Assembly (NCBI GenBank): GCA_963662465.1
Contig: OY759599.1
Location: forward strand, 6,464,001-6,528,000
Origin: Desulfatiglandales bacterium
GTDB taxonomy: Bacteria > Desulfobacterota > DSM-4660 > Desulfatiglandales > Desulfatiglandaceae
Length of the DNA stretch: 64,000 bases
Reading direction: 5' to 3'
Part shown: one piece after another, positions 9,434 through 62,617 of the stretch
How positions within the stretch are numbered: the stretch's first letter is position 1
Layout of the letters: each line of letters opens with the position of its first letter
Notes under the pieces: model-generated
Seen by the model: the letters and a program-made list of their open reading frames with translations, nothing else
Told to the model about the DNA's origin: nothing
The model's database searches: none
Made by a program: the position numbers and the translations under genes

Positions 9434-9492
9434 AAGTGACAAGTGAGAAGTGACGCGTAAAGCTAAGAGGGTTCCGCTTGTCACTTGTCACT
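9434..9492. repeat. Inverted heptamer arrays, (AGTGACA)-type and (TGTCACT), in a divergent intergenic region
   Basis: aagtgacaagtgagaagtgacg ... cttgtcacttgtcact. Confidence 0.7.
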
Positions 9493-10276: not shown

Positions 10277-10311
10277 ATGAAAGGTGAAAGCTGAAAGCTG
10301 AAGGGTGAAAG
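10277..10311. repeat. Five heptamer units (NTGAARG) directly upstream of the amrS SD
   Basis: atgaaag gtgaaag ctgaaag ctgaagg gtgaaag, then AGGAG and the ATG at 10322. Confidence 0.8.
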
Positions 10312-28433: not shown

Positions 28434-28454
28434 TTTTAAGTTTTAAGTTTTAGG
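28434..28454. repeat. (TTTTARG)3 heptamer array upstream of gspF
   Basis: ttttaag ttttaag ttttagg; the same family occurs inverted at 62590-62610. Confidence 0.55.
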
Positions 28455-28522
28455 TTAATGTGCGAAAATCCAGACCGCATATGTTCCCTGGGTGTACGTT
28501 TTGAGCCGGAGCGAAGTAAAAA

Positions 28523-30772: not shown

Positions 30773-31172
30773 GAAGCCCGACGGGTTTACCCTTCTGGAG
30801 GTCATGATCGCCGTTGCGGTGCTGGCGATTGCCCTGGTGGCCGTGCTGGGGCTCCAGTCCCGGACCCTGACCCTGGCCGCGGAATCCCGGTTCCATACTA
30901 CGGCCGCCCTGCTGGCGCAGGGGAAAATGGCTGAGATGGCGGTGGCCGATTTAAAGGCTTTGTCCTCGGATTCAGGTGATTTCGGCGATGAATTCTTAGG
31001 GTACGCCTGGCGCCTGTCCGTTCAGGATGCCGACTTGCCGGGCCTTGAAAAGGTCAAAGGCCGGCTCAAATGCATTGACCTGGAAGTGACCTGTGGCGAG
31101 GGGGATATCTATCGATATGATCTCAGGCTGTACCGGTTTTTTCCGGTGGAAGCTGTGACAAGTGAAAAGTGA
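30765..31172 (+). CDS. gspI: T2SS minor pseudopilin I
   Basis: GFTLLEVMIA, AALLAQGKM; the stop codon lies inside a heptamer array. Confidence 0.82.
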   Translation: MRKKPDGFTLLEVMIAVAVLAIALVAVLGLQSRTLTLAAESRFHTTAALLAQGKMAEMAVADLKALSSDSGDFGDEFLGYAWRLSVQDADLPGLEKVKGRLKCIDLEVTCGEGDIYRYDLRLYRFFPVEAVTSEK

Positions 31173-31209
31173 AGAGTGAAGAGTGAAAAGTGAAGAGTGA
31201 AGAGTGAAA
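31161..31209. repeat. (AGTGAAR)7 array at the gspI/gspJ junction
   Basis: Seven consecutive units; gspI TGA in unit 2, gspJ GTG in unit 7. Confidence 0.95.
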
Positions 31210-31884
31210 AGTACCGAAGACAGGGGGTTTACGCTGCTTGAGATTCTGTTGGCGATTTTCATGCTGACCGTTGTGGTGTCGACGGTTTTCGGTGCTTTTT
31301 CAGGAACTTTCAAGGTCGTGAACGAAACGGAATCCCAAGGGGAAATTTATGCCATGGCACGGGTAGCGCTGGAAAGGATTTCCGAAGATCTGGCATCGGT
31401 CTATGGGGGTGATTCGTCGAAAACGCCGGCATCTGAAGCGGTCGCCCCACAACAACGGTTTCTTTTTGTGGGAGAAAACCATACCGTGGATGGGCAGAGC
31501 GCCGATACCCTCCGGTTTATGTCCTATGCGCATGTGTCTTTCAAGGCCGGTCGGCAGGACGAGGGGCCGGCGGAGATTGTTTATTACCTGCAGCGCAATG
31601 AAGATACGGGGGAACAGGCCCTGTACCGCTCCGATACCCTGGATTATCTGGAAGCACCGGAAAACGGACAGGGAGGGTTCCTGCTCTGTGATCGTCTCAA
31701 ATGGGTCGATTTTATCTATTATGACGGCAACGGCGAGGCCCGCAATGCCTGGGACACCACGGAGAACACCGGAAAAGAGGCACTCCCTTCACGGGTTGAG
31801 ATCTCCATGGGATTTGAAAATGCCCTTGACCCGGAAAACCCGCTGCAATTCATGACCGGCGTGGCGTTGCCGCCGGTTGAATGA
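31204..31884 (+). CDS. gspJ: T2SS minor pseudopilin J
   Basis: GFTLLEILLA, C-terminal W...LPSRVEI. Confidence 0.82.
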   Translation: MKSTEDRGFTLLEILLAIFMLTVVVSTVFGAFSGTFKVVNETESQGEIYAMARVALERISEDLASVYGGDSSKTPASEAVAPQQRFLFVGENHTVDGQSADTLRFMSYAHVSFKAGRQDEGPAEIVYYLQRNEDTGEQALYRSDTLDYLEAPENGQGGFLLCDRLKWVDFIYYDGNGEARNAWDTTENTGKEALPSRVEISMGFENALDPENPLQFMTGVALPPVE

Positions 31885-34366: not shown

Positions 34367-34888
34367 ATGCAGTTAGGAAAACGGGAAAAATTTTCTTTGT
34401 GGCTGGCAGCTTTTGCGCTGACAGTTTTCTGTCTTCTTCAGTTTGTTGTCTTTCCCATGGCGGAAAATCGTAAACGTCTGAGACGGAGCATCCTGGCCAA
34501 AGAGACCGGTTTGAAGGAAATGGTTCGGCTGTCCGGAGAATATGCGGCCCTGGGACGACAATCACAGACCGTGGAAAGCGTTATTAAGGGGCGGACACCC
34601 GGTTTTACCCTTTTCTCTTTTCTTGAAAAAGCCGCGGGAGAGGCCGGCGTCAAACGCCATATTAAATATATGAAACCCTCTTCTTCAAAGGGTGAAGGTC
34701 CGTGGAAGGAAGCAATGGTGGAGATGAAACTGGATAAAATATCCCTGAAACGGCTCATGGAGTACCTGTATCTTATTGAATTGTCTAACAAAGCGATAGA
34801 TGTCAAACGGTGCGCCGTAACCGAAAACAAAGGATTGACCGGCGCACTGGATGTGGTTTTGCAGGTGGTTGCCTTTGAGTCGCCTTGA
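34367..34888 (+). CDS. gspM: T2SS protein M
   Basis: L.KREK plus an N-terminal TM helix and coiled coil; synteny. Confidence 0.8.
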   Translation: MQLGKREKFSLWLAAFALTVFCLLQFVVFPMAENRKRLRRSILAKETGLKEMVRLSGEYAALGRQSQTVESVIKGRTPGFTLFSFLEKAAGEAGVKRHIKYMKPSSSKGEGPWKEAMVEMKLDKISLKRLMEYLYLIELSNKAIDVKRCAVTENKGLTGALDVVLQVVAFESP

Positions 34889-34890
34889 GA

Positions 34891-34925
34891 AGTGAAAAGT
34901 GAAAAGTGAAGAGTGAAGAGTGAAG
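34891..34925. repeat. (AGTGAAR)5 array at the gspM/gspN junction
   Basis: gspM TGA in register in a degenerate preceding unit; gspN GTG in unit 5. Confidence 0.93.
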
Positions 34926-35798
34926 AAGCGTTTTAAATTTCTGGGTTATGGGCTTTATGCTGTCCTGGTGACGGTGGCCTTGCTCTATTATCGATTTCCA
35001 TCGGATGCGATTAAACAACACCTGATTCAAGTGGTTGGTCGGATGGAACCCGGGGTCATTCTTTCGGCCCGGTCTCTTCATCCGTCGTTTCCGCCGGGAT
35101 TGCAGTTGCTGGAACCTGTTTTTTCCCTGAAAGAACGTCCTGAAACAGCCGTTTTCAAAGCGGAACATCTGTTGGTGAGTCCCGGAATCGGATCGTTGTT
35201 TTGGGGGAGAGTTGCCTGGTTCTTTGACGCCGACGCCTATGGCGGTATTATCAGCGGCCGTATCCAGCTTGGGAAGCGCGGTGAAATGGCCGATCTTTCC
35301 GTGTCCCTTAAGGATGTTCGCATTCATGAATATGGGTTTCCGCCCGACTTGGGCATTGGCGATTTGACGGGAAATCTCAAGGGGGACGTGACCTATAGCG
35401 GACTCATGGACCGGCCCATAACGGGGGTCGGGAACGGAGATATTCTTATTTCAGAAGGGAAAATTGATCTTTTCCACCCGTTTCTGGGTCTTGAAACTAT
35501 CCCTTTTGGAAAATTACGCGCCCAATTGACCCTGAAAAAAGGGATTGTCAATTTGATCTCGATTTCCCTTGATGGAAAAGGATTTCAGGGAACGCTCTCC
35601 GGAACCATCCATCTTAATCGGATGATAGCCCGCAGTCGGCTCAATTTGAAGGGGACCATCGAACCGTTTGCGGCTTACCTCGGGACCTTGAAAGGGGGCC
35701 CGGCACTGCTGAGCCTTTTTCAGGGGGGACGAAACGACCTGAAACGTTCCTTCGTCATTCAGGGTACCTTTATGTCGCCGAAATTTCGGTTTACATAG
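34920..35798 (+). CDS. gspN: T2SS protein N
   Basis: N-terminal TM helix with YYRFP, beta-rich body, GTFMSP end; synteny. Confidence 0.78.
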   Translation: MKKRFKFLGYGLYAVLVTVALLYYRFPSDAIKQHLIQVVGRMEPGVILSARSLHPSFPPGLQLLEPVFSLKERPETAVFKAEHLLVSPGIGSLFWGRVAWFFDADAYGGIISGRIQLGKRGEMADLSVSLKDVRIHEYGFPPDLGIGDLTGNLKGDVTYSGLMDRPITGVGNGDILISEGKIDLFHPFLGLETIPFGKLRAQLTLKKGIVNLISISLDGKGFQGTLSGTIHLNRMIARSRLNLKGTIEPFAAYLGTLKGGPALLSLFQGGRNDLKRSFVIQGTFMSPKFRFT

Positions 35799-38247: not shown

Positions 38248-38855
38248 GCTACATCCATGAGGCGCTGAAAAAAGCCCAAGATGAACGGGACCTGGGAAAA
38301 GGCTCGTACGCCGGAATAACGGCTCCCCAGGGGAAAAAGCCTCGCGTCGCCCTTCGCAAAACCATTTTGTGGGCTATTCTTGTGTTGATGGTTCTGCTTG
38401 CTTTTGCGGCCTATTCATGGTGGGATCTGAAAAAAATAGGGACGAATCATTATTCGCCCGTGCCGGAAAGCGCTGCGGCATGCTATGAAAAGGCGAGAGC
38501 GTTTAACCGGGAAGGTCGTTTGTCGGACGCCGGAGCATGGTATGAAAAGGTCATCGCCATGGACCCGGGCCATGTTCAGGCGCTCAATAACCTGGGTGTA
38601 CTCCGCCTTCATGAAAAGGACTACCCGGCAGCCCGAAGATGTTTTGAAAAAGCAAGCCACTTGAAACCCGATTATGTGGATCCCTATTACAACCTGGCCT
38701 GTGTTTCCGCGGTCACGGACCAGGCGGATCAGGGGCTTCGATATTTGGAAAAAGCCATTTCCCTGGATCCGAATGTTAGGGAGTGGGCGCGAAAAGATCC
38801 GGATCTGGATGCGTTGAGAGAATCGGTTTTGTTCCGGGAGATGGTTGGTAAGTGA
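38244..38855 (+). CDS. GspB-like membrane-anchored TPR protein
   Basis: MSYIHEALKKAQDER (GspB-type N-terminus), TM helix, TPRs, YNLAC...ARKDPDL. Confidence 0.72.
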   Translation: MSYIHEALKKAQDERDLGKGSYAGITAPQGKKPRVALRKTILWAILVLMVLLAFAAYSWWDLKKIGTNHYSPVPESAAACYEKARAFNREGRLSDAGAWYEKVIAMDPGHVQALNNLGVLRLHEKDYPAARRCFEKASHLKPDYVDPYYNLACVSAVTDQADQGLRYLEKAISLDPNVREWARKDPDLDALRESVLFREMVGK

Positions 38856-38885
38856 AGAGTGAAAAGTGAAGAGTGAAGGGTGAAA
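38851..38885. repeat. (AGTGAAR)5 array at the TPR gene/gspD junction
   Basis: TGA in unit 1; an in-frame GTG for gspD in unit 5. Confidence 0.92.
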
Positions 38886-38900
38886 AAAACGAGAGTAAAC

Positions 38901-40979
38901 ATGAAATATCATAAACTGTTATGCTGCTTTTTTGTTGCTTTGCTGGGAGTAGGGTTCTTTTTGATGCCCTCGTCGGTTTTGGGTGCTCGCGTGACGGGGG
39001 AAGATGGCGTCATCCCTGCCGTTCCTCAAAGCGCATCAGCAAAGGAAAAACCTGTTTCAGTTTCTCCTTCGCCCCTGAAGGGATCGGTCGAGGCCCAAAA
39101 GGAACACGCGCCGGAACCGGATGAATCGGAAGCTGCTGTGACTATCGATTTCGATCAGGTGGATATTCCCATTTTCATCAAATTTATGAGCGAATTGACC
39201 GGAAAGAATTTCGTCATCGACAAAGGCGTCAGGGGCAAGGTGACCATTATTTCCCCCAACAAAATCAGCGTGGATGAGGCTTACAGGGTCTTTGAATCGG
39301 TGCTTGAGGTTTATGGCTATACCACTGTGCCCTCAGGCAACATCATCAAAATCGTTCCCGCGGTAAGCGCTCGCACCATGAGCGTGGAAACCCGATTGAA
39401 GAAAGGCGCTCTGGACCCGGGCGATAAAGTGGTTACCCAGTTGATTCCCCTGCGGTATGCGGACCCTGATGATCTGAAAAAACTGTTTGCACCGTTTATC
39501 AGCAAAAGCAGCGTCATGGTGTCCTATTCCCCTACCCGAACCCTGATTGTTACGGATGTGCAGTCTAATATCAAACGCCTTTTGAGTATTGCCCACGCCA
39601 TTGATGTGAAAGGTGTGGGTGAGGAGATATCCGTGGTCCCCCTGGAATATGCCACCGCCGGCCCCCTGGCCAAGTCTTTGAATACGGTGTTTGAGCGGCG
39701 GGCCATGAAGCGCAAGGGCAGCGCTGATGAGCAGACCGTCACCAAGATTGTGGCCGATGAAAGGACCAATTCGTTGATCGTGGTGGCATCCGAGGACGAT
39801 TCCGCCAGAATCCGGAAACTGGTGGAACTTCTGGACAAGGAAGCGCCCCGGGGCAAGGGCGACATCCATGTGTTTTATCTGCAGCATGCCAATGCCGAAG
39901 ATTTGACCAAGGTGCTGACCGCCCTTCCGTCCAAAAAATCAAGTGGCGAAAACAAGGGGAAGGCCCCCATCCTTTCCAAGGAAGCCCGGGTTGTGGCGGA
40001 CCAGGCCACTAATTCCCTGGTCATCATGGCGGAAAAGGATGACTATCTGGTGCTGGAAGAGGTTATTCAGAAACTGGATATTCCGCGAATGATGGTTTTT
40101 ATCGAGGCCCTCATCATGGAAGTAAATGTGAATAAGGATTTCAACCTGGGTGTGGAGTGGGAGGGGGTCAAGGATATTTCCTATAATGGGAAGACCGGCG
40201 GGATTTTTGGCGGTTCCAAATCGTCAGATTCGGGTACCCTGGGGCCGATGTTGAGTACTGGAGCGCTTCCCAAAGGCTTTTCCATGGGGGTTATCAGCGA
40301 ACTTATCGAGATCGGCGGCATCAAATTTCCGAACCTGGCGGCGGTGGTGAACGCCTACCAGAAGGATCGGGACGTCCATATCCTTTCTACCCCTCAGATC
40401 CTCACCACGGACAATGAGGAGGCGGAGATCATGGTGGGAAAAAACGTGCCCTACCAGGTTCGTCAGGAAACCACGGATGCGCAGTTGAACTACAGTTCCT
40501 ATGAGTATAAGGACGTAGGCGTAACCCTCAAAGTCACCCCACAGATCAGCCAGGAACGGTTTGTTCGCCTCAATATTCATCAGGAGGTGACCCGGCTGGT
40601 CCAAGATTCCGTTTCGACCTCAGACTCAACGACGCGTCCTGAGACCTGGAAGCGTATGGCCCAGACTACGGTGATCGTCAAGGATGCCAACACTGTGGTG
40701 ATTGGCGGACTGATCGGGGATGAGACCACGAATACCGACTACCAGGTGCCCTGCCTGGGAAATATTCCCCTCGTGGGCTGGCTTTTCAAGGGGACCAGCA
40801 AATATCGGGAACGGACGAACCTCTTTATTTTCCTGACGCCTCGCATTGTCCAGAATCCGGCTGAGGCCAGAAAAATTTACCTGGATAAGAAGGACCAGAT
40901 CGAACGGATTAAGGAAGGGGTTATTAAAATGTACCATAGGACCAAACCCAAACCGCTGGAAGTGAAGAGTGAAAAGTGA
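38901..40979 (+). CDS. gspD: T2SS secretin D
   Basis: N0-N3 domains (IDFDQVDI, TGKNFVID, DERTNSL) and secretin domain (STPQIL, DVGVTLKVTP, VPCLGNIP); alternative start GTG 38880. Confidence 0.96.
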   Translation: MKYHKLLCCFFVALLGVGFFLMPSSVLGARVTGEDGVIPAVPQSASAKEKPVSVSPSPLKGSVEAQKEHAPEPDESEAAVTIDFDQVDIPIFIKFMSELTGKNFVIDKGVRGKVTIISPNKISVDEAYRVFESVLEVYGYTTVPSGNIIKIVPAVSARTMSVETRLKKGALDPGDKVVTQLIPLRYADPDDLKKLFAPFISKSSVMVSYSPTRTLIVTDVQSNIKRLLSIAHAIDVKGVGEEISVVPLEYATAGPLAKSLNTVFERRAMKRKGSADEQTVTKIVADERTNSLIVVASEDDSARIRKLVELLDKEAPRGKGDIHVFYLQHANAEDLTKVLTALPSKKSSGENKGKAPILSKEARVVADQATNSLVIMAEKDDYLVLEEVIQKLDIPRMMVFIEALIMEVNVNKDFNLGVEWEGVKDISYNGKTGGIFGGSKSSDSGTLGPMLSTGALPKGFSMGVISELIEIGGIKFPNLAAVVNAYQKDRDVHILSTPQILTTDNEEAEIMVGKNVPYQVRQETTDAQLNYSSYEYKDVGVTLKVTPQISQERFVRLNIHQEVTRLVQDSVSTSDSTTRPETWKRMAQTTVIVKDANTVVIGGLIGDETTNTDYQVPCLGNIPLVGWLFKGTSKYRERTNLFIFLTPRIVQNPAEARKIYLDKKDQIERIKEGVIKMYHRTKPKPLEVKSEK

Positions 40980-40988
40980 AGAGTGAAA
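40961..40988. repeat. (AGTGAAR)4 array at the gspD/gspE junction
   Basis: Encodes the gspD tail VKSEK; GTGA stop/start overlap at 40976-40979. Confidence 0.92.
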
Positions 40989-42736
40989 AGATTTTGGTTT
41001 CTGCAATAACAACGCCTATGTCATCCGGTATTCCAGACGGCCCTTGGGTCCGGCCGTTGGGAGAAATCCTTTCTGAAACCAGTGGGTTGCATGAAACCCA
41101 TCTTCAGCAGGCACTGCAGGTTCAGGAAGAAAAAGGGGGAAGACTGGGAGAGATCCTGATTCGCCGGAAGGTGATTACGGAAGGCGATCTACTCGCTGCT
41201 CTGGGATTGCAGTGGGATTTGCCGGTTTCCATGACCCTGCCCTTTGAAGATCTGAATACGGCTTTTACCGAAAATACGCCCATTCAGTTTCTCAAGAAAT
41301 TTAAACTGGTCCCCGTGGTTACCCGTCAAGGGGCCACTATTGCCGTCAATGATCCTTTACAGTTTCAGGCCCTGGATGATGTGCGGAGACTGCTGGATCT
41401 GGAGGATGCGGCCGTGGTGCTGGCGCCTGTTTCGGCGATTTTTTCAGTCATCAACGCGGCCTACGACGTAAGCGGCGATTCCGCTGAGCGGGTCATCGAG
41501 GACATGCAGGAGGGAGAAGCCGGTCGCATATTATCGGAAATCGAGGAGACAACGGATCTGCTGGAGGATACCAGCGACGCCCCCGTGGTGAAACTGGTCA
41601 ATCTCATGCTGAGCCGGGCGGTCAAGGCCCGGGCCAGCGATATCCATATCGAGCATTCCCAGCGCAAACTGCGCATTCGATACCGGGTGGACGGCATCCT
41701 TTACGACATGCTGAGCCCGCCCAAACATATTCAGTCGGCCCTGATTTCCCGCATCAAGATTATGGCCAAGATGAACATTGCCGAGAAGAGACTGCCCCAG
41801 GATGGTCGTATCAAGATCCGTATCGCGGACAAAAATGTTGATATTCGCGTGTCTACCATTCCCGTGGCATTTGGAGAACGGGTGGTCCTTCGGTTGCTGG
41901 ATAAAACCAACGTGCTGCTCAAGGCAACGGACCTGGGCATGCCCCAAAAGGATTTGACGACCTTTGAACAGCTCATTACCTCCCCCCACGGCATTATTCT
42001 GGTGACCGGCCCCACGGGCAGCGGCAAGACCACCACCCTTTATGCGGCGTTGTCCACCATCAATAAGACGGATATCAATATCATTACTATCGAGGACCCC
42101 ATCGAGTACCAGATCGACGGGATCGGCCAGATCCAGACCAACAGCAAAATTGATCTCACCTTTGCCAAGGGATTGCGCTCCATTGTCCGCCAGGACCCGG
42201 ACGTGATTCTGGTGGGGGAGGTGCGTGATCTCGAGACCGCCGAAATCGCTATCCAATCGGCCCTCACCGGGCATTTGGTTTTTTCCACCCTGCATACCAA
42301 TGATTCCGCCGGCGCTGTGACCCGCCTCATCGATATGGGCATCGAACCCTTCCTTGTTACGTCTTCAGTGACCGCTATTCTGGCCCAGCGGTTGGTGCGG
42401 GTTATTTGCGCCCAATGCCGTGAGGCGTACACCCCGGACGAGGAATCCCTCCGGAAGGTCGGCATCACTCGCGAGATGGCCCAGGGGGCGACCATCTATC
42501 GGGGGCGAGGATGTCCCGCCTGTCTGGATACGGGGTTCAAGGGCCGAACCGGTATCTTTGAGTTTATGGTGCTGGATGAAAAGATCAAAAACATGATTTT
42601 AAAAACTTCCGATGCCAATGCCCTCAAGCGGGCTGCTATCGAGGGAGGAATGACCACGCTGCGCCGGGACGGCGCCCGAAAAGTCCTTGAGGGGGTTACC
42701 ACCATCGAGGAAGTTTTCCGAGTGACCTATCAGTAA
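40976..42736 (+). CDS. gspE: T2SS ATPase E
   Basis: ASDIHIE, RLPQDGR, GPTGSGKTT, EDPIE, RQDPD, STLHTND, tetracysteine motif; alternative start ATG 41018. Confidence 0.96.
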   Translation: MKSEKILVSAITTPMSSGIPDGPWVRPLGEILSETSGLHETHLQQALQVQEEKGGRLGEILIRRKVITEGDLLAALGLQWDLPVSMTLPFEDLNTAFTENTPIQFLKKFKLVPVVTRQGATIAVNDPLQFQALDDVRRLLDLEDAAVVLAPVSAIFSVINAAYDVSGDSAERVIEDMQEGEAGRILSEIEETTDLLEDTSDAPVVKLVNLMLSRAVKARASDIHIEHSQRKLRIRYRVDGILYDMLSPPKHIQSALISRIKIMAKMNIAEKRLPQDGRIKIRIADKNVDIRVSTIPVAFGERVVLRLLDKTNVLLKATDLGMPQKDLTTFEQLITSPHGIILVTGPTGSGKTTTLYAALSTINKTDINIITIEDPIEYQIDGIGQIQTNSKIDLTFAKGLRSIVRQDPDVILVGEVRDLETAEIAIQSALTGHLVFSTLHTNDSAGAVTRLIDMGIEPFLVTSSVTAILAQRLVRVICAQCREAYTPDEESLRKVGITREMAQGATIYRGRGCPACLDTGFKGRTGIFEFMVLDEKIKNMILKTSDANALKRAAIEGGMTTLRRDGARKVLEGVTTIEEVFRVTYQ

Positions 42737-43411: not shown

Positions 43412-43446
43412 GAGGTCGGAGGTCAGAGGTCAGAGGTCGGATAGCG
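43412..43446. repeat. (GAGGTCR)4 heptamer array plus a degenerate unit between convergent genes
   Basis: gaggtcg gaggtca gaggtca gaggtcg gatagcg. Confidence 0.85.
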
Positions 43447-54074: not shown

Positions 54075-54830
54075 ATGGAGACGCAAACAATAGAAGAAAT
54101 AAAACGGGTTATTATGGCTGAACTTCCAGAGCTTATGAGAAATGACCCGGATATGCGCAGTTTTATATTGAATGTCACCCGGGAAAGCTATTCGGACAAA
54201 AGAGAAACGGAAAGCCGCTTTGACCGGATGATGGATGAGTTGAAACGGGATCGCGAAGCCCGCGATAAAAAGTGGGCAGCTCAGGAGAAGAAGTGGGAAG
54301 CCTGGGAGAAGAAGTGGGATAAGGAGCACAAAGTTCAGGAGGAGAAATGGGAAGCCCAGGAGAAGAAATGGGAAAAAAACCAGCAGGTTATCAACGAGTT
54401 ATTGGAATCCGTCAAAAAGCTGGGGCAAAAGCATGACTCTACCCTTGGGGCTTTGGGGGCGAGATGGGGCTTGCATTCCGAATCCGCTTTTCGAAAAGGT
54501 CTGCGGGCCATTCTGGAGGGATCGTTCGGGGTGAAAGTGGAACGGTATGAAGACTACGACCACGAAGGGACCGTGTTCGGTCGGCCCGAACAGATCGAAT
54601 TGGACGTGTTGATCCACAATGGGACCCTGATCCTGTGCGAGATCAAATCGTCCATGAGCAAATCGGAGCTGTATACATTCTGGCGAAAGAAAAATTTCTA
54701 TGAAGAGAAACATGCCCGCAAGGCCAGTCGGGCGATGGTTATTTCACCCATGGTGGATGCGTATGCCCTTGCCGCGGCAGAGCAGCTGGATATCGAGATC
54801 TATGGATATGCTGAAGATGTTAAACCGTGA
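54075..54830 (+). CDS. DUF3782-like coiled-coil / PD-(D/E)xK nuclease-fold protein
   Basis: KKWEAQE repeats, ALGARWG..SE.AFR, ELDVLI...CEIKSS, VISPMV; SD GGAGG. Confidence 0.82.
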   Translation: METQTIEEIKRVIMAELPELMRNDPDMRSFILNVTRESYSDKRETESRFDRMMDELKRDREARDKKWAAQEKKWEAWEKKWDKEHKVQEEKWEAQEKKWEKNQQVINELLESVKKLGQKHDSTLGALGARWGLHSESAFRKGLRAILEGSFGVKVERYEDYDHEGTVFGRPEQIELDVLIHNGTLILCEIKSSMSKSELYTFWRKKNFYEEKHARKASRAMVISPMVDAYALAAAEQLDIEIYGYAEDVKP

Positions 54831-55999: not shown

Positions 56000-56003
56000 T
56001 TCA

Positions 56004-56051
56004 AGTGAAAAGTGAATGGTGAAAAGTCTCTTCACTCTTCACTTGTCACTT
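56004..56051. repeat. Inverted heptamer hairpin between convergent dctP and purQ
   Basis: agtgaaa agtgaat ggtgaaa agt-ctcttcactcttcacttgtcactt; contains the purQ stop. Confidence 0.85.
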
Positions 56052-56873
56052 CTTATTAAAATAGTCCACCGCATTTCGAAAGATGGCAATTCCCCCCCCT
56101 TCTTCTCCTTCAATGCTTTCCCCCCGGCGGGCAAGGGCTAGTTTACGCCGGGGCCAGTCCGGGTGATTGGTGAAATGGTTAAATGCCTCCGGGTGCGGCA
56201 TCAGCCCGAAGATGCGACCCGTTGGATCGCAGATGCCGGCGATATCGGAAAGGGATCCATTGGGATTTGAGGGCCATGCGCCATTGGCGGGGTTTCCATT
56301 GAGGTCGGCGTATTGCAGCGCCACCTGGTTGTTTTGAAAAAGCCGTTCGATGGTATCTGCTGTGGCGTAAAATTTTCCCTCCCCATGCCGAATCGGGAGT
56401 TCCACACGGGTCATGTTCCTGGTGAAGACATTCGGGGAAGCTGGATTTACCTTTAAATTTACCCAGGTATCGATAAAATTCCCCGAGTCATTATGGGCGA
56501 GGGCCACCTGCCGGTCCTCATATTTCCCGTCAAACGCCGGCAGTAACCCTAGATTGACCAGGGCCTGGAAACCGTTGCATATGCCCAGGATCAGATTTCC
56601 CGCGCCAACAAAGTCTTTGAGTTGTTGACCCAGATGCCGTTTCATTTTTGAGGCCATGAGGACTCCCGCACCGTGGTCGTCGGCCCAGCTGAAACCGCCC
56701 CCGAAGACCAGGATTTGATAGCCTTCAAGGGATCTTAAGGAATCGCTGTCGCTGATCAGTTGATTGATGTGCAACCTGTGGGAATCTGCGCCGGCCTGTT
56801 GCAACGAAAAGTCGGTTTCATTATCGCAATTCAGTCCATAGCCGGTGAGGACCATCGCTTTTACTTTTGTCAT
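56046..56873 (-). CDS. purQ: FGAM synthase glutaminase subunit
   Basis: GGFSWAD, GICNGFQ, NDSG.F, RHGEG, NPNGS, MPHPE; ATGA coupling to purL. Confidence 0.94.
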   Translation of the reverse strand: MTKVKAMVLTGYGLNCDNETDFSLQQAGADSHRLHINQLISDSDSLRSLEGYQILVFGGGFSWADDHGAGVLMASKMKRHLGQQLKDFVGAGNLILGICNGFQALVNLGLLPAFDGKYEDRQVALAHNDSGNFIDTWVNLKVNPASPNVFTRNMTRVELPIRHGEGKFYATADTIERLFQNNQVALQYADLNGNPANGAWPSNPNGSLSDIAGICDPTGRIFGLMPHPEAFNHFTNHPDWPRRKLALARRGESIEGEEGGGIAIFRNAVDYFNKK

Positions 56874-59863
56874 ATCAGATCTCCAAAAGGCTGTTTCCAT
56901 GAATCCTTTAAACGGATGATATTTTCCCTGAGAATGGTTCCGTCTCTATCCCCGGTGATGATAAAATCCAGATGTTCAGTGACAACGCCGATCTTAGCCA
57001 GGGTCATTCCGGGGAAAAGTTTTTCAAAGGGCGCTTTTTTCTCCGGCGCCACCGTTAAAATGAACCTGCCGCATGATTCCGAGTAGAGTTTCTGAGCGGT
57101 TGTGAGTTCCTTTGCACAGGGGATCAACAGCAACGAAACGGTCATCCCCAATTCCCCGCCCATGGCGGCGAGCGCCAGGTGAACCGCCAGCCCGCCCCGT
57201 GAGACCGCGTGACAGGATGAGACCAGGTCGCGCTTTATGGCCTGGTGAAGGGCCAGGTATTGGGGAAGAAATTCTTCCGGAAAAACGTTGGGCACGTTAA
57301 GACCAATCTGTTCCATCATCTGGTAATACTCGCTCGCACCCAGTTCATTTCGGGTCTCTCCCAACACATAGACCAGGTCCCCCGGGAATTTGACGTCCAT
57401 GGTAACGGCTGTGGCGATATCTTCCATGACGCTTGAAACGGTAAAGAGCAGGGTCGGCAATCCGGATACCTTGCGCCGTTCCCCGAAGGGTCCTTTGAGG
57501 TTGCCGTCAATATACATGCTGTCTTTTCCCGAAAGAAGGGGGATGCCATATTGAAGACAGGTGTCCCGCAGGGCGCGGTTGGAGCGGACTAGTTGAGCGG
57601 CTTTGTATTTGCCGTCCGGATTGCGAACGGGATCATACTCGATGGTGGGCCAGCAGAAATTGTCCACGCCGGCCAGATGGTTCGGGTCGGCGCCCACAGC
57701 CAGAACCTTTCTGACGGCTTCGTCCATGGTGGCTGCGGTCATGTGGTAAGTATCAATTTTGGAATAGGCGGGATTCAGGGCCTGGGATACGGCAATTCCC
57801 TTCCGGGCCTTCAGTACGGGGCGAATTACCGCCGCATCCGAAGGAACGTCCCGTCCTTTTCCCACCAGGGGTTTGATGACGCTGGTTCCCTGAACTTCAT
57901 GATCATATTGCCGGCTGATCCAGTTGCGGGAGCAGATGTTGGGTCTTTTCAGCATGGCGTGAAGGAGTTTGCCGTGATCCCGGGGTTCCGTGATCACCGG
58001 TTCCGTCAGGCCTCTGATGCCGGGGGGGATCCATTCGGCATCAAACTCCCACTGGGGGAAATCGGATTCCAGGAGGTCCATTCGAATGTAGGCGCAGGTC
58101 TTCTGGTGATATTGCAGGTGCAGAAAACCGGAATCAGTATATTCCCCGATGACCGTGCTCAACACCGCATGCTTTTGGGAGAGGGCCATGAAACGGTCCA
58201 GATGTTCCGGTTTCACAGCAATGGTCATCCGTTCCTGGGATTCGGATATCCAGATCTCCCACTGGTTCAATCCTTCATATTTCAGGGGGACCCTGTCCAG
58301 GTGTACGATGCAGCCGTTGCTGAAACGGGCCGACTCGCCCACGGAGGAAGAAAGACCCCCGCCCCCATTGTCGGTGATATAGTGAATCAAGCCTTCATCC
58401 CGGGTTTCCAGGAGAAAATCGTGCATCTTTTTCTGGGTATAGGGGTCGCCGATCTGCACATGCCCCGCCGGGGTATTTTCGGAGTAGGTTTCAGACGCCG
58501 CCGTTACCCCGTGAATGCCGTCCTTTCCAACCCTTCCGCCGCTCATGATGATGAGGTCACCGGGGGATGTGGTTTTTTCGTGTGACGGTTTATTTTCCAC
58601 CATTGAAGGCATAATGCCCAATGCCGTCACAAAAACCAGGCATTTTCCGGTGAAGGTTTCATCAAAAAGAAGGAGGCCGTAGGGCGTGGGAATGCCGCTT
58701 TTGTTGCCGCCGTCGCGAACCCCTTCGATGATGCCGTCCAGGAGACGTCTTGGGTGAAGGTGGGGTTCAAGGGCGCCATGGTAATCCCTGTGCCCCACGC
58801 AATACCCATACATGCCCAAAATGAGTTTTGATCCTTTTCCGGTTCCCATGGGATCCCGGTAAATTCCCACGATTCCGGTGATGGATCCGCCATAGGCTTC
58901 CATGTTGGATGGGCTGTTGTGGGTTTCACCCGTGATGCAGTAGTAATGGTCCGGGTCGAAGCGGGCCACCCCCGCGTTATCCCACAAAACGGAGACGACC
59001 CAATCCTTCTCTTTCTGGATTTTGAGTGTCGGCGCCTCGATGCAGGTTTTAAAGAGGCTGTCGATGGTTTCCCGGTTTCCGGTGTAAAGGTTGTGATAAT
59101 TAAATTTTCCCCGGAAGGTGTTGTGGTTGCAGTGGTCGCTTCGGGCCTGGGAAATGTATTCCAGCTCCACATCGGTGGGAAGATCCAGCCCCACTTTTTT
59201 TCTTTCCCGCCGGATGTCTTCCCGTAAAAAATAGTTGCGGATGACCGGGATGTCTCGATCCTGAAGCGCCAGATTTCGCTCTTTGGAAATGTGTTTCAGT
59301 GCCTCATTGCTCTCAATGGACAAGGTGTTTACTTCCGGTTCATGGACCAGGATCACCTTGGGTATCAAAAATCCCAGGCCTTCGTCGGGATTCCAGTCCT
59401 CGGTGGAAAAAATTTTCCATTGTTGAATGGCCGCGTTGGCCAGCAGTTCCGCTGCCATGCGGTGGGCCTGGTCTCGTGTGAGGTTTCCTCTGATTTCATA
59501 GCATTTTGAGGTGTAAACCGCCTCCCCGGGTTTAAACGTAACGCCCAGAAGGTCTTCGATGGCTTCACGGGCGGTGCTCCCCGCAGTATCTCGTACGCCC
59601 GGACGGAACCCCACCCAGATAAGCCAGTCAAAATTCCTTTGCATGGGCGAATAGGCGCTTTGCTCGGTGATGGGGTTCGTAAATATATCGTTTTGAATAC
59701 GGTGCAGTTGATCGGTCGAAAAATCGGCGTCAATGGTCAGAACCCGGATGACCCGAACCTCATCCACGTCAAACCCGAAGTACGCCTTCGATTTTTTTTG
59801 AATGCCGGCCCCCGATGCATCCGGGAGCGCGTCTTTCAATCTTATTTCCAGTCTGAATGTCAT
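56870..59863 (-). CDS. purL: FGAM synthase synthetase subunit with an N-terminal PurS-like region
   Basis: SDHCNH, ETHNSP, GRVGKDGIHG, VQIGDP, DNGGGGLSS, SESQERM, QYDHEV, SGKDSM. Confidence 0.95.
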   Translation of the reverse strand: MTFRLEIRLKDALPDASGAGIQKKSKAYFGFDVDEVRVIRVLTIDADFSTDQLHRIQNDIFTNPITEQSAYSPMQRNFDWLIWVGFRPGVRDTAGSTAREAIEDLLGVTFKPGEAVYTSKCYEIRGNLTRDQAHRMAAELLANAAIQQWKIFSTEDWNPDEGLGFLIPKVILVHEPEVNTLSIESNEALKHISKERNLALQDRDIPVIRNYFLREDIRRERKKVGLDLPTDVELEYISQARSDHCNHNTFRGKFNYHNLYTGNRETIDSLFKTCIEAPTLKIQKEKDWVVSVLWDNAGVARFDPDHYYCITGETHNSPSNMEAYGGSITGIVGIYRDPMGTGKGSKLILGMYGYCVGHRDYHGALEPHLHPRRLLDGIIEGVRDGGNKSGIPTPYGLLLFDETFTGKCLVFVTALGIMPSMVENKPSHEKTTSPGDLIIMSGGRVGKDGIHGVTAASETYSENTPAGHVQIGDPYTQKKMHDFLLETRDEGLIHYITDNGGGGLSSSVGESARFSNGCIVHLDRVPLKYEGLNQWEIWISESQERMTIAVKPEHLDRFMALSQKHAVLSTVIGEYTDSGFLHLQYHQKTCAYIRMDLLESDFPQWEFDAEWIPPGIRGLTEPVITEPRDHGKLLHAMLKRPNICSRNWISRQYDHEVQGTSVIKPLVGKGRDVPSDAAVIRPVLKARKGIAVSQALNPAYSKIDTYHMTAATMDEAVRKVLAVGADPNHLAGVDNFCWPTIEYDPVRNPDGKYKAAQLVRSNRALRDTCLQYGIPLLSGKDSMYIDGNLKGPFGERRKVSGLPTLLFTVSSVMEDIATAVTMDVKFPGDLVYVLGETRNELGASEYYQMMEQIGLNVPNVFPEEFLPQYLALHQAIKRDLVSSCHAVSRGGLAVHLALAAMGGELGMTVSLLLIPCAKELTTAQKLYSESCGRFILTVAPEKKAPFEKLFPGMTLAKIGVVTEHLDFIITGDRDGTILRENIIRLKDSWKQPFGDLI

Positions 59864-59878
59864 GGGTATATACCTCTT

Positions 59879-60053
59879 TTAGCTGTTAGCCGTTAGCCGT
59901 TAGCTGTTAGCTTGTGGATAAAACTATTCAATATTCTCTTTATCGCATTGACCTTTCGAACACAATCTCTTATGAATTTATTTTAAATGTCGACCATTAA
60001 CGGCTAACGGCTAACGGCTAACGGCTAACGGCTAACGGCTAACGGCTAACAGC
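59879..60053. repeat. Inverted heptamer arrays, (GTTAGCY)5 at 59879-59912 and (TAACRGC)8 at 59998-60053, around an 85-bp core
   Basis: Seven perfect TAACGGC units plus TAACAGC; complementary to the left array. Confidence 0.95.
59893..59997 (-). pseudogene. Probable internally deleted four-helix-bundle (23S-IVP/TIGR02436-like) gene remnant
   Basis: Minus frame reads MVDI*NKFIRDCVRKVNAIKRILNSFIHKLTANG*; the tail resembles the last helix of this family and ends in the repeat. Confidence 0.55.
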
Positions 60054-60201
60054 TTTCTAACTTGAAACAAAGAGCGTCGTCAACTGACATTTTTTTGCAG
60101 GGCGCTTTGCCGGGCAGCACCCTGAACTTGAAATTAAAATGTCAATGCGTATCTTTTTTAAAATGTATTGACACAGGTTAATGTTAAGGAGCGACTTGCC
60201 A

Positions 60202-62028
60202 ATGGAAAAACTGGAAACAGAAGCGACCGAAAAAAAGAGTGCCGGAAGGCTTCCCAATCAGCGAGAACTTGAAAAAGAATTGGGAGATTATCTTTCAAAA
60301 AAATATGGTGATCGCGTCAAAATTATTTCTCCGTTTGTTCTTCCCAAAAAGGATCCAACAGATCAGAAGAGTCCAAAGTCCGGCCCCGACGGGGCTGATA
60401 TGGATGATTTTTTTATGATGCCCGAGGAAATGGCATCTTACCTGGATGGCTTTGTGGTGAAACAGGATCAGGTCAAGGCCGTCCTGGGAACAAAAATATG
60501 TACGCATTTTAATCGGATCAGGTTTAATCGCCAAAAGGAAGCTGAAAACCTTGGCGGAACCGGTAAAAGGTCCGGCGTCGGGATGATCAAAAATAATGTG
60601 TTGATGATCGGTCCCACCGGCGTGGGGAAGACCTATATCATCAAACTCATTGCGCAGAAGCTGGGCGTTCCCTTTGTCAAAGGCGATGCCACCAAATTCA
60701 GCGAGACCGGTTACGTGGGTGGGGACGTTGAAGATCTCATTCGGGATCTGGTTTACGAAGCGGATGACAACATTGAGTTGGCCGAGAACGGCATTGTTTA
60801 TATTGATGAGATTGATAAAATATCATCCTCCAGGAATTTAATCGGACACGATATCTCCCGGACCGGCGTTCAGCGGGCCTTGTTAAAGCCCATGGAGGAG
60901 ACCGATATCGACATGAAGGTCCCGCATGATCCCATCAGTCAAATTCAGGCCATTGAGCATTACAGGCGTACGGGAAAAAAGGAAAAAAAGGTGGTCAACA
61001 CCAAAAACATCCTTTTTATCATGAGTGGCGCTTTTGGCGATTTGACCGATATCGTTAAGAAAAGACTGCAGCGACAGGGGATTGGGTTCGAGGCCGATGT
61101 GCGATCCACCGAGATTCCGTGGGAAATATTAAAAGAGGTGCGTGCCCAGGATCTGGTTGAATTCGGGTTCGAGTCTGAGTTCGTGGGAAGGCTGCCGGTG
61201 GTGGTGGTGTTTGACGAGCTGACAAAGGACGATCTGTTTGAGATTCTCAAAAATCCGAATAATCCTATTATCATCAGCAAACGGATGGATTTCAGAGCCT
61301 ATGGGATCGATGTTAAATTTGAAGATGATGCGTTGAAACGCATTGCCGAATTGGCGGCAACGGAAAAGACCGGCGCCAGAGGGTTGGTGAGCGCCATTGA
61401 AAAAGTCCTGATTCCTTTTGAAACCCACTTGCCCTCAACAAACATCAAACAATTCCTGGTGACACGGGAAGTGGTTGATGATTCTGACGCGCAATTGTCG
61501 CTTTTGATGGAAAAGTCGGATGATGCGTGGATCGACCGTTTCGAAAAAGCGAAAAAGCATGAAATGGATGAGATCAAGCAGTATATCGTGGAACGGTCTG
61601 AGTATTTCAGCGATAAATTGGGCCTCGATTTTTATGATCGACGGCGGGAATTGATTGCGAGGCTCTATTTGCGGGATGTCACGGATATTGATATGGCCAT
61701 TGAAAAATTCAGAGCCATGTATGAGCAGATCCATGCCGAAAATGACGCCCTGAGGCAAAATCTCGATGTGAAAATCGTCTTTGATGATAGCGCCGTGGAC
61801 GAGATTATCCATCAAGCAGTAGAATCGGGCCAGGATGCCAGGCACCTGACCTTTCAATTGGCCAAGCAGCTTGAGTATGGGCTCAGGCTGGTGAAAGACC
61901 GTGCCGGTATGGCAGAGTTTATCATTAACAGCGCGGCGCTCACGGATATGGAGTCATTTATCAACGATCTTGTGAAGCGGGCATATCATGATCAAGATTC
62001 TCCCACCGCGGAGAAAACGGAAGAATGA
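60202..62028 (+). CDS. ClpX-like AAA+ ATPase lacking the zinc-binding domain, with a C-terminal extension
   Basis: GPTGVGKT, DATKFSETGYVGGDVE, YIDEIDK, GVQRALLK, IGF loop, EFVGRLP, TGARGL; SD AGGAG. Confidence 0.85.
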   Translation: MEKLETEATEKKSAGRLPNQRELEKELGDYLSKKYGDRVKIISPFVLPKKDPTDQKSPKSGPDGADMDDFFMMPEEMASYLDGFVVKQDQVKAVLGTKICTHFNRIRFNRQKEAENLGGTGKRSGVGMIKNNVLMIGPTGVGKTYIIKLIAQKLGVPFVKGDATKFSETGYVGGDVEDLIRDLVYEADDNIELAENGIVYIDEIDKISSSRNLIGHDISRTGVQRALLKPMEETDIDMKVPHDPISQIQAIEHYRRTGKKEKKVVNTKNILFIMSGAFGDLTDIVKKRLQRQGIGFEADVRSTEIPWEILKEVRAQDLVEFGFESEFVGRLPVVVVFDELTKDDLFEILKNPNNPIIISKRMDFRAYGIDVKFEDDALKRIAELAATEKTGARGLVSAIEKVLIPFETHLPSTNIKQFLVTREVVDDSDAQLSLLMEKSDDAWIDRFEKAKKHEMDEIKQYIVERSEYFSDKLGLDFYDRRRELIARLYLRDVTDIDMAIEKFRAMYEQIHAENDALRQNLDVKIVFDDSAVDEIIHQAVESGQDARHLTFQLAKQLEYGLRLVKDRAGMAEFIINSAALTDMESFINDLVKRAYHDQDSPTAEKTEE

Positions 62029-62543: not shown

Positions 62544-62589
62544 TGCTAAACTTTGCTCCTTAAAAACAAGAAATTTATTGACGGAATAA

Positions 62590-62610
62590 CTTAAAACTTA
62601 AAACCTAAAA
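62590..62610. repeat. (CYTAAAA)3 heptamer array
   Basis: cttaaaa cttaaaa cctaaaa. Confidence 0.55.
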
Positions 62611-62617
62611 CCGCGGA

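Follow-up and report, generated by a model that had tools for sequence, protein, structure and literature searches.

A hairpin element in the purL leader of a Desulfatiglandales bacterium as a probable remnant of a heptamer-armed four-helix-bundle gene cassette

The host genome (G000) comprises 8.16 Mb in one contig, and the window, by which we mean the whole stretch of 64,000 nucleotides that was analysed, contains a purL gene and a divergently transcribed clpX-like gene, between which two inverted arrays of heptamers enclose a core. The features of this region are the following, in window coordinates.

56870..59863, minus strand: purL, the downstream host gene, whose product, an FGAM synthase, has PurS-like domains at its N-terminus (TIGR01736, E 1.8e-135, under the cut-off of the model).
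59872..59876, minus strand: Shine-Dalgarno (SD) sequence of purL, GAGGT (AGGT in the empty allele).
59876..60052, minus strand: whole element, 177 bp, standing in place of 34 bp of the ancestral purL leader.
59876..59912, minus strand: SD-proximal arm, about five units of RGCTAAC, coding for LTANG and a stop (59895-59893); its final G lengthens the SD.
59879-59912: left (SD-proximal) array as delimited by period, 7 nt, 4.9 copies of TTAGCTG.
59913-59997: core between the arrays, 85 bp.
59913..59961, minus strand: 3' end of a TIGR02436 four-helix-bundle gene with its last helix, VNAIKRILNSFIH, recognised by nhmmer and DNA identity.
59962..59973, minus strand: likely decayed gene start, IRDC instead of MRDF, a 12-nt match to the starts of the family.
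59974..59997, minus strand: 24-nt spacer with a spurious MVDI and stop, homologous neither to the 3' part of the gene nor to the empty leader.
59998-60054: right array as delimited by period, 8.1 copies of TAACGGC, 98% matches.
59998..60052, minus strand: promoter-proximal arm, eight units of GTTAGCC on the purL strand; the sister lineage has five units fewer (a 35-bp skip in X4/X5 and X8).
60054..60083, minus strand: putative purL promoter, TTGACG at 60083-60078 and TAGAAA at 60059-60054.
60181..62028, plus strand: clpX-like gene, the divergent neighbour (NF003745, E 1e-96, below cut-off).

A repeat scan of the window bore out the array positions given in the original prediction, which had furthermore placed AGAGG at 59877-59873, immediately past the left array, where it is indeed found, and had correctly read the minus strand of the core as MVDI, a stop, NKFIRDCVRKVNAIKRILNSFIHKLTANG and a second stop, LTANG and this last stop being supplied by the repeat. 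Since a short contig assembled from a different sample within this study is identical to the window from 59881 to 60027 (0 differences), it is unlikely that the element is an assembly artefact.

The element is absent from all eight congeners with a purL leader, six of which have a short plain leader and two another hairpin element, and comparison of the purL-clpX spacer across relatives, as had been proposed, revealed that it varies and that both filled (contigs X4/X5 and X8) and empty (X6) alleles exist. At the junction obtained from X6 and X5, 177 bp are skipped with 34 letters between, and these 34 replaced letters in X6 are the leader sequence of G010, so that the notion of a clean insertion does not hold. 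The sister lineage, found in two samples (X4, equal to X5, and X8), shares this deletion derivative but has three repeat units where the window has eight, and its core differs from that of the window at 4 of 85 positions, at which the sister base is the one found in the majority of full-length members (6, 4, 5 and 5 of 6), as would be expected of decay on the window lineage. The purL gene of G010 is the nearer one (22 differences in 476) and yet its leader is empty, whereas X4 is about 10% divergent and yet filled, which may be explained by recombination having swapped the purL leader between lineages; X4 itself comprises several strains. Four differences in 85 positions at some 10% divergence in purL is slow for neutral DNA and suggests allele exchange or constraint. 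A metagenome scan for the empty allele gave 0 matches, and a four-helix-bundle match upstream of purL was found in none of 29 relatives, 4 of which had fewer than 200 usable bases. As to other occupants of this position, the purL leaders of L014 (G008) and L017 (G004) contain an unrelated element of about 140 bp with inverted ends just before the SD, an Rfam search of 8 of the 30 purL loci, among them L012 and those with the 140-bp element, gave 0 matches, and in other genera the purL leaders of L037 (G019), L039 (G016) and L023 (G026) contain short tandem arrays of 7- or 9-nt units.

The relatives with which the core was compared were chosen by TIGR02436 score alone (the best 30 loci), this family having matches in 68 of 81 taxonomic-family genomes. 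The protein of one of them, L102, ends in VNEVKRMLNSFIQKLTANG and agrees with the window at 15 of 19 residues, or at 10 of 14 if the repeat-encoded tail is left out, and the C-termini of L096 and L095 resemble that of L102. All three loci have TTAGCY arrays upstream of the gene and GCTAAY arrays downstream. The repeat-free core matches L096 in 49 of 61 columns, with a score of 70 where shuffles reached 33 at most, and L102 in 48 of 61 (66, shuffles at most 31), while L095 scored 40 at a shuffle maximum of 41 and L099 and L115 gave no alignment. With an nhmmer DNA profile of five full-length members the core is the best hit in the whole genome (E 7.5e-5), spanning 59970-59914 and model positions 305-361 of 362, and the same profile had zero hits on the reversed genome. 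In addition, 36-38 of the last 45 nt of the core are identical to L224, L187 and L225, as against 32 of 45 in two members without terminal inverted repeats (TIRs), and a broad HMM of 30 proteins ranked the core first among 12,780 window fragments, yet at only 10.7 bits. The claim that the peptide is a four-helix-bundle C-terminus is thus in agreement with both the L096 and L102 alignments and the nhmmer hit. The same is not true of its proposed MVDI start, the ATG of which falls in the 24-nt stretch that has just 6-11 matches in 25 to full-length members; since these first 24 nt have no homology to the gene, MVDI and its stop are spurious. The 12 nt that follow match the gene starts of three members at 10 and of two at 9 of 12 positions, as opposed to 3-6 of 12 if read in the 3' register, for which a rough estimate of chance is 0.009, and hence both the start and the end of the gene have likely been retained. 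The core is the 3' end, and probably also the mutated start, of a TIGR02436 gene, some 20 codons besides this start remaining of an intact ORF of about 120 aa, and the remnant is probably non-coding. The notion that the 5' end of the core is leftover host leader was ruled out (shuffle p 0.14-0.69 against six empty leaders).

The search of the genome and its relatives that was suggested at the outset succeeded only in part, as it was the nhmmer profile and the genes of relatives that disclosed the homology, whereas BLAST and tblastn of core and peptide found nothing significant elsewhere in G000, where the core is single-copy. The peptide had no family hit, was below the TIGR02436 and PF05635 cut-offs as an ORF, and, with E allowed up to 10, matched no four-helix-bundle model of NCBIfam; the locus is absent from the 11 PF05635 matches in G000, and no full-length member of the subfamily was found in that genome (best match 33%). 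A scan of genome contigs for the pattern F-I-x-K-L followed by repeat, which is a weak test, gave 53 loci, by eye three full four-helix-bundle C-termini, about eight truncated ones and otherwise unrelated sequences, and G000 contains other remnants of the subfamily at 2522527-2522571, 6050729-6050792 and 6993566-6993673. It could be argued from the want of a significant tblastn hit elsewhere in G000 or NCBIfam match, and from the richness of G000 in heptamer arrays, that slippage together with template switching generated the arrays on the spot and that the likeness of the peptide is due to chance. This explanation is however made exceedingly improbable by the DNA homology to genes with the same arms, which is significant genome-wide and holds in the repeat-free alignment, and by the ancestral leader, which has no seed of the repeat. 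Indeed, a peptide unlike four-helix-bundle C-termini, genes of this kind without heptamers and an invariant spacer had been named beforehand as observations that would speak against the original prediction, and the opposite was found in all three respects. That the element is an internally deleted, non-autonomous copy, as had been claimed, is likewise supported by the junctions and by the alleles in relatives, and its status as a remnant is hardly in doubt.

To characterise the class to which the remnant belongs, 55 four-helix-bundle loci were assembled from the 30 top hits, 20 hand-picked from the same list and 5 from G000. Complementary arms scoring at least 12 were present in 48 of the 55 and in none of 75 random ORFs, which upholds the prediction that these genes are framed by inverted heptamer arrays, although the counts are not independent since the loci include kin and near-duplicates. 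The repeat unit is specific to each subfamily and mostly 7 nt, in some cases 8 nt, long. Several of the PF05635 matches in G000 lie between inverted arrays and some are internally deleted; internally deleted cassettes of a GGTTTTG type, with about 190 bp between the arms, are also seen at 7120643-7120883 and 7124284-7124531 of G000. The full gene has a dN/dS of 0.06-0.25 in 8 of 10 pairs, the other 2 being saturated, and is under purifying selection, the transposon-borne family included, which implies that the protein serves either the unit or the host. The protein of the parent L190 scores 134 bits against TIGR02436 (cut-off 24) and 30.6 bits against the Avd model NF033474, a weak match below the cut-off of 80, and a full-length relative matches Xcc0516 (PDB 2gsc) with E 2.7e-20. 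G outnumbers C in the first arm of 45 of the 48 cassettes, as it does in 30 of the 31 close inverted pairs of G000, a polarity that could stem from common descent or from directional sites for a protein, and that, by way of conjecture, might hide the C-rich arm from Rho. No bias towards G·U on the RNA strand was detected in the 48 stems (39 G·U and 45 A·C on the strand of the gene), whereas control tRNA acceptor stems have 11 and 1, respectively; there is no sign of RNA-duplex selection in the stems, but long stems may tolerate either mismatch. The original proposal that the insert is looped out of the mRNA, or its excision by RNase III, thus finds no support here. The unit-by-unit register of the arms is marginal, 10 of 200 shuffles reaching the observed sum.

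On the purL strand the RNA of the element has a predicted folding energy of -79.4 kcal/mol (z -8.1), and 0 of 200 shuffles were equally stable. A long arm-to-arm stem, as originally proposed, is thus predicted, but it has 30 pairs and one C-A mismatch rather than about 34 pairs. The unpaired probabilities in the SD region are predicted to be similar in filled and empty leaders, and the claim that translation of purL is left intact therefore agrees with an SD modelled to be as accessible as in the empty allele. The predicted duplex with the 16S tail of the genome is even stronger (-7.2 kcal/mol filled, -3.9 kcal/mol empty) because the last base of the element extends the SD. The TTGACG hexamer is unchanged in 7 of 7 aligned congeners and is for this reason a candidate promoter element, in which case transcription would start within the first repeat unit; no purL promoter was reported by a scan for consensus promoters. 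On the other strand, a promoter-like TTGAAA-16-TATCTT at 60128-60155 of the window lies upstream of clpX in a stretch that is conserved in congeners. All in all, the effect of the element on purL is predicted to be small.

Four-helix-bundle ORFs (S23p/PF05635/TIGR02436) are found in the loop of 23S rRNA intervening sequences (IVSs), which are closed by a terminal stem of about 30 bp, and the helix-45 IVS described for Coxiella burnetii has heptamers before its S23p ORF and a 28-bp stem cut by RNase III (PMC4990558). The present element has the same terminal complementary arms in a long predicted stem, and the Coxiella IVS also resembles it in the variable number of heptamers 5' of the ORF and in decay of the ORF, including a large deletion, as reported in that account (PMC4990558). 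Unlike 23S rRNA IVSs, however, it is located in an mRNA leader between purL and clpX, and unlike the Coxiella IVS as described, both of its arms are heptamer arrays, its gene is almost wholly deleted, and sister copies are dispersed with IS ends. The element is accordingly a decayed member of an IVS-like class of cassettes outside rRNA, and no description of heptamer-armed four-helix-bundle cassettes outside rRNA was found in the literature covered, which took in few subscription papers, so that a description may have been overlooked. The resemblance to the RNase III-cut Coxiella stem (PMC4990558) raises the question of whether the element acts as an intervening sequence of the mRNA or as a co-opted leader, its stem being cut by RNase III or protecting the 5' end and selected for tuning of purL. 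Such a function might account for the stronger predicted SD, the low divergence of the core, the change in unit number between 3 and 8, and the unrelated hairpin element that two congeners have in the same leader. It is nevertheless in poor agreement with the six congeners that do with a short plain leader, with the likeness of all four core differences to decay on the window lineage, with the absence of a G·U bias across the cassettes, and with a transcription start that would fall within the first unit and so leave no upstream RNA to be held together as in rRNA, and we regard it as distinctly improbable.

How the cassettes move is best seen in the nearest full-length relatives of the core, which share ends outside their arrays. 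These ends are found 26 times in G017 and 4 times in G066, the exact end sequence occurring in 5 of 105 taxonomic-family genomes. Eight paired elements could be delimited, 3 of full length, 4 deletion derivatives of 151-246 bp and 1 with a foreign core, and their 8-bp duplications are exact in 4, have one mismatch in 2 and are missing in 2. One element bounded by TIR and array and with an 8-bp duplication (L196, G017:C71:3459-3793) has a core unrelated to the four-helix-bundle gene. The ends of the sister cassettes also delimit an IS of 1.7 kb in G068 (L215:470-2367) with two ORFs, a slippery A-run and an 8-bp AT-rich duplication, in which a second outer end lies about 200 bp beyond the first, and the congener G007 has an IS (L262:1450-3129) that is 59% identical to it, has similar ends and is flanked by an 8-bp duplication. 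The sister cassettes of G017 and G066 thus have the TIR of an autonomous IS, duplications and many copies but no transposase. Since these properties are those of a MITE or MIC moved in trans by its cognate IS as described (PMC3129680), deletion derivatives included, they are alike in kind, with the difference from that description that the passenger carries inverted arms of its own inside the TIRs. The window copy itself has neither TIR nor duplication nor near-identical copies, two other remnants in G000 being differently deleted, but it does have filled and empty alleles. The candidate mobiliser resembles the prokaryotic Mutator-like (p-MULT) type of IS (PMC3942029), although its transposase did not reach the cut-off of any family model tried (for the G068 protein, 70.7 of 205 bits with ISKra4 and 58.1 of 200 bits with ISLre2). 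The AT-rich target of the sister cassettes, for which 40 flanks gave the consensus AAAWWTTT, recalls that of ISH6, given as AANATNTT, and the two ORFs and slippery A-run recall ISMich2 (PMC3942029). The IS protein is present in 3 of 201 genomes of the order, the transposase was not found in G000, G010, G004, G017 or G066 with the query used, and the congener G008 has a 3' fragment that bears a TIR. As judged from these sequences, DNA transposition of the IS-ended sister cassettes would be the only route of movement documented. A derivation of the heptamers from the IS end was considered, as the TIR overlaps one unit (GCGGTTA), but was rejected; both autonomous IS are without arrays, and capture at the overlap is therefore the better-fitting candidate.

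A credible duplication of at least 8 bp was found in only 4 of 48 stem-bearing cassettes (8 of 600 in the control; a fifth lies inside a repeat), and most cassettes thus show no such route. One of these 4 (L164, G026:C80) has different ends, GTAACTAC, with an exact 8-bp duplication and represents a second kind of transposon end, which suggests that IS ends were captured repeatedly and do not belong to the unit itself. A TIR scan of viral contigs gave 7 hits, none of which is within an element. In the window copy no terminal inverted repeat was found, the TIR core having 0 matches in G000 and no array of that genome having a TIR-like match beside it at up to 2 mismatches, nor is there a target duplication, the junctions being those of the 34-bp replacement.

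Its route of arrival can consequently be deduced solely from its sisters, in which the IS-type ends, 8-bp AT-rich duplications, many copies and deletion derivatives are demonstrated, whereas core homology, the arm-gene-arm design, absence from congeners and the change in repeat number are demonstrated for the element of the window. The explanation that we consider rather probable combines arrival by a Mutator-like route with near neutrality. A cassette of heptamer array, TIGR02436 gene and inverted heptamer array, of which the element would be the internally deleted remnant, was likely brought into the purL leader by a Mutator-like transposase, as its passenger, perhaps at the site AAAATTTT, which is included in the empty G010 leader and would have stood in the ancestral one. 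Later deletions would have cost it both of its ends and about 100 codons, and the host leader 34 bp, leaving a 5' hairpin predicted to spare translation of purL, and the remnant may have been tolerated because its stem closes on itself and stops right before a slightly stronger SD. It should be mentioned that no fewer than three deletions must be assumed if the window copy came by a transposon.

Alternatively, the cassette could have arrived by a route of its own, in which a four-helix-bundle pentamer related to Avd binds the heptamer-armed RNA or DNA and an enzyme of the host or of a retroelement exchanges host sequence for the cassette at microhomologies. Forms with IS ends would then be occasional captures. 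Such a route would be in keeping with the 44 of 48 cassettes that have no credible target duplication, with the replacement of 34 bp and lack of a duplicated site at purL, with the conservation of the protein even in the transposon-borne family, with the weak Avd match of L190 and with the G-rich first arms. Furthermore, of 55 GCTAAC arrays, 16 have an SD and start codon within 40 nt on the strand that reads GCTAAC and 4 on the other strand, the background being 7.4% (arrays outside the 105-bp element described below, paired arms counted twice). The absence of a G·U bias in comparison with tRNA, the marginal arm register and the fact that the core is nearest to the TIR-bearing family rather than to members without TIRs do however argue against it, and we find such an arrival unlikely, the Mutator-like route remaining preferred.

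Heptamers are by no means confined to this locus, since G000 has 315 arrays of period 7, which is far above chance, and at most 29 of any other period from 4 to 12. With a lower threshold the number rises to 527, and 35 pairs of neighbouring arrays are inverted and no more than 1.2 kb apart. Comparison of 17 distinct array loci of G010 with G000 showed 13 that align without a break across the array, 1 whose site in G000 is empty, 1 for which just one flank aligned and 2 unmatched. Some arrays in G000 belong to a dispersed element of about 105 bp (44 arrays, 29 full-length copies) that has TTTAC at both ends and a GTTAGC array inside (e.g. C1:883709 and 1190184), followed by a stretch resembling the RBS and start of the cassette; one copy is filled in G010 (L150, G010:C1:~155790-155900) and empty at G000:C1:5621962, and in the remnant at G000:C1:6993566-6993673 a cassette is fused to the left end of such an element and has a terminal TIR-like vestige. 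Further arrays in the window, mostly of AGTGAAR type and including three close inverted pairs, are located at 1709-1777, 9434-9492, 10278-10311, 28434-28456, 31155-31212, 34886-34926, 38851-38884, 40961-40990, 43412-43438, 56003-56043 and 62588-62611; that at 10278 adjoins an SD and ATG, and two convergent genes flank the pair at 56003-56043. The window also contains a 251-aa ORF (54075-54830, plus strand) in which a 21-nt tandem repeat (54255-54319) codes for a low-complexity coiled stretch. The heptamers of Xanthomonas, whose GGGAATC repeats have been linked to G-quadruplexes in a paper whose available text has no occurrence of a helix bundle, are similar to those described here in their excess of period 7, intergenic location, frequent close inverted pairs and variable length, but differ from them (PMC4692102) in that GTTAGCY, the unit found here, lacks a run of G and is associated with a gene cassette. 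The BrickBuilt MITE of Porphyromonas gingivalis is likewise intergenic with an internal tandem array, but its unit is 23 nt, it has one direct array, and its abstract names no four-helix-bundle gene (PMC4596501). As regards the DGR accessory protein Avd (PMC10053308), the full-length relative is alike only weakly, below the Avd cut-off, and the window contains just a fragment.

Two unexplained matters meet at this locus, namely a large family of proteins that is familiar from the intervening sequences of rRNA, and the excess of heptamers in bacterial genomes, an over-representation that has been described as little studied (PMC4692102). The relic links a gene-less hairpin to the full cassette by sequence, the locus offers filled and empty alleles for direct comparison, and it leads to an identified IS that shares its ends with sister cassettes. 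Since intact relatives appear to move as transposon passengers, the cassettes are likely one source of the bacterial heptamer excess. A more tentative possibility, which we put forward with some doubt, is that the arm-gene-arm unit is a selfish element, the pentamer of which recognises the polarised arms, G-rich arm first. If this were true, insertions in leaders and operons would be made harmless or mobile by the unit, unrelated transposases would merely capture it, and the hundreds of arrays in this genome as well as the heptamer excess of bacteria would largely be its debris.
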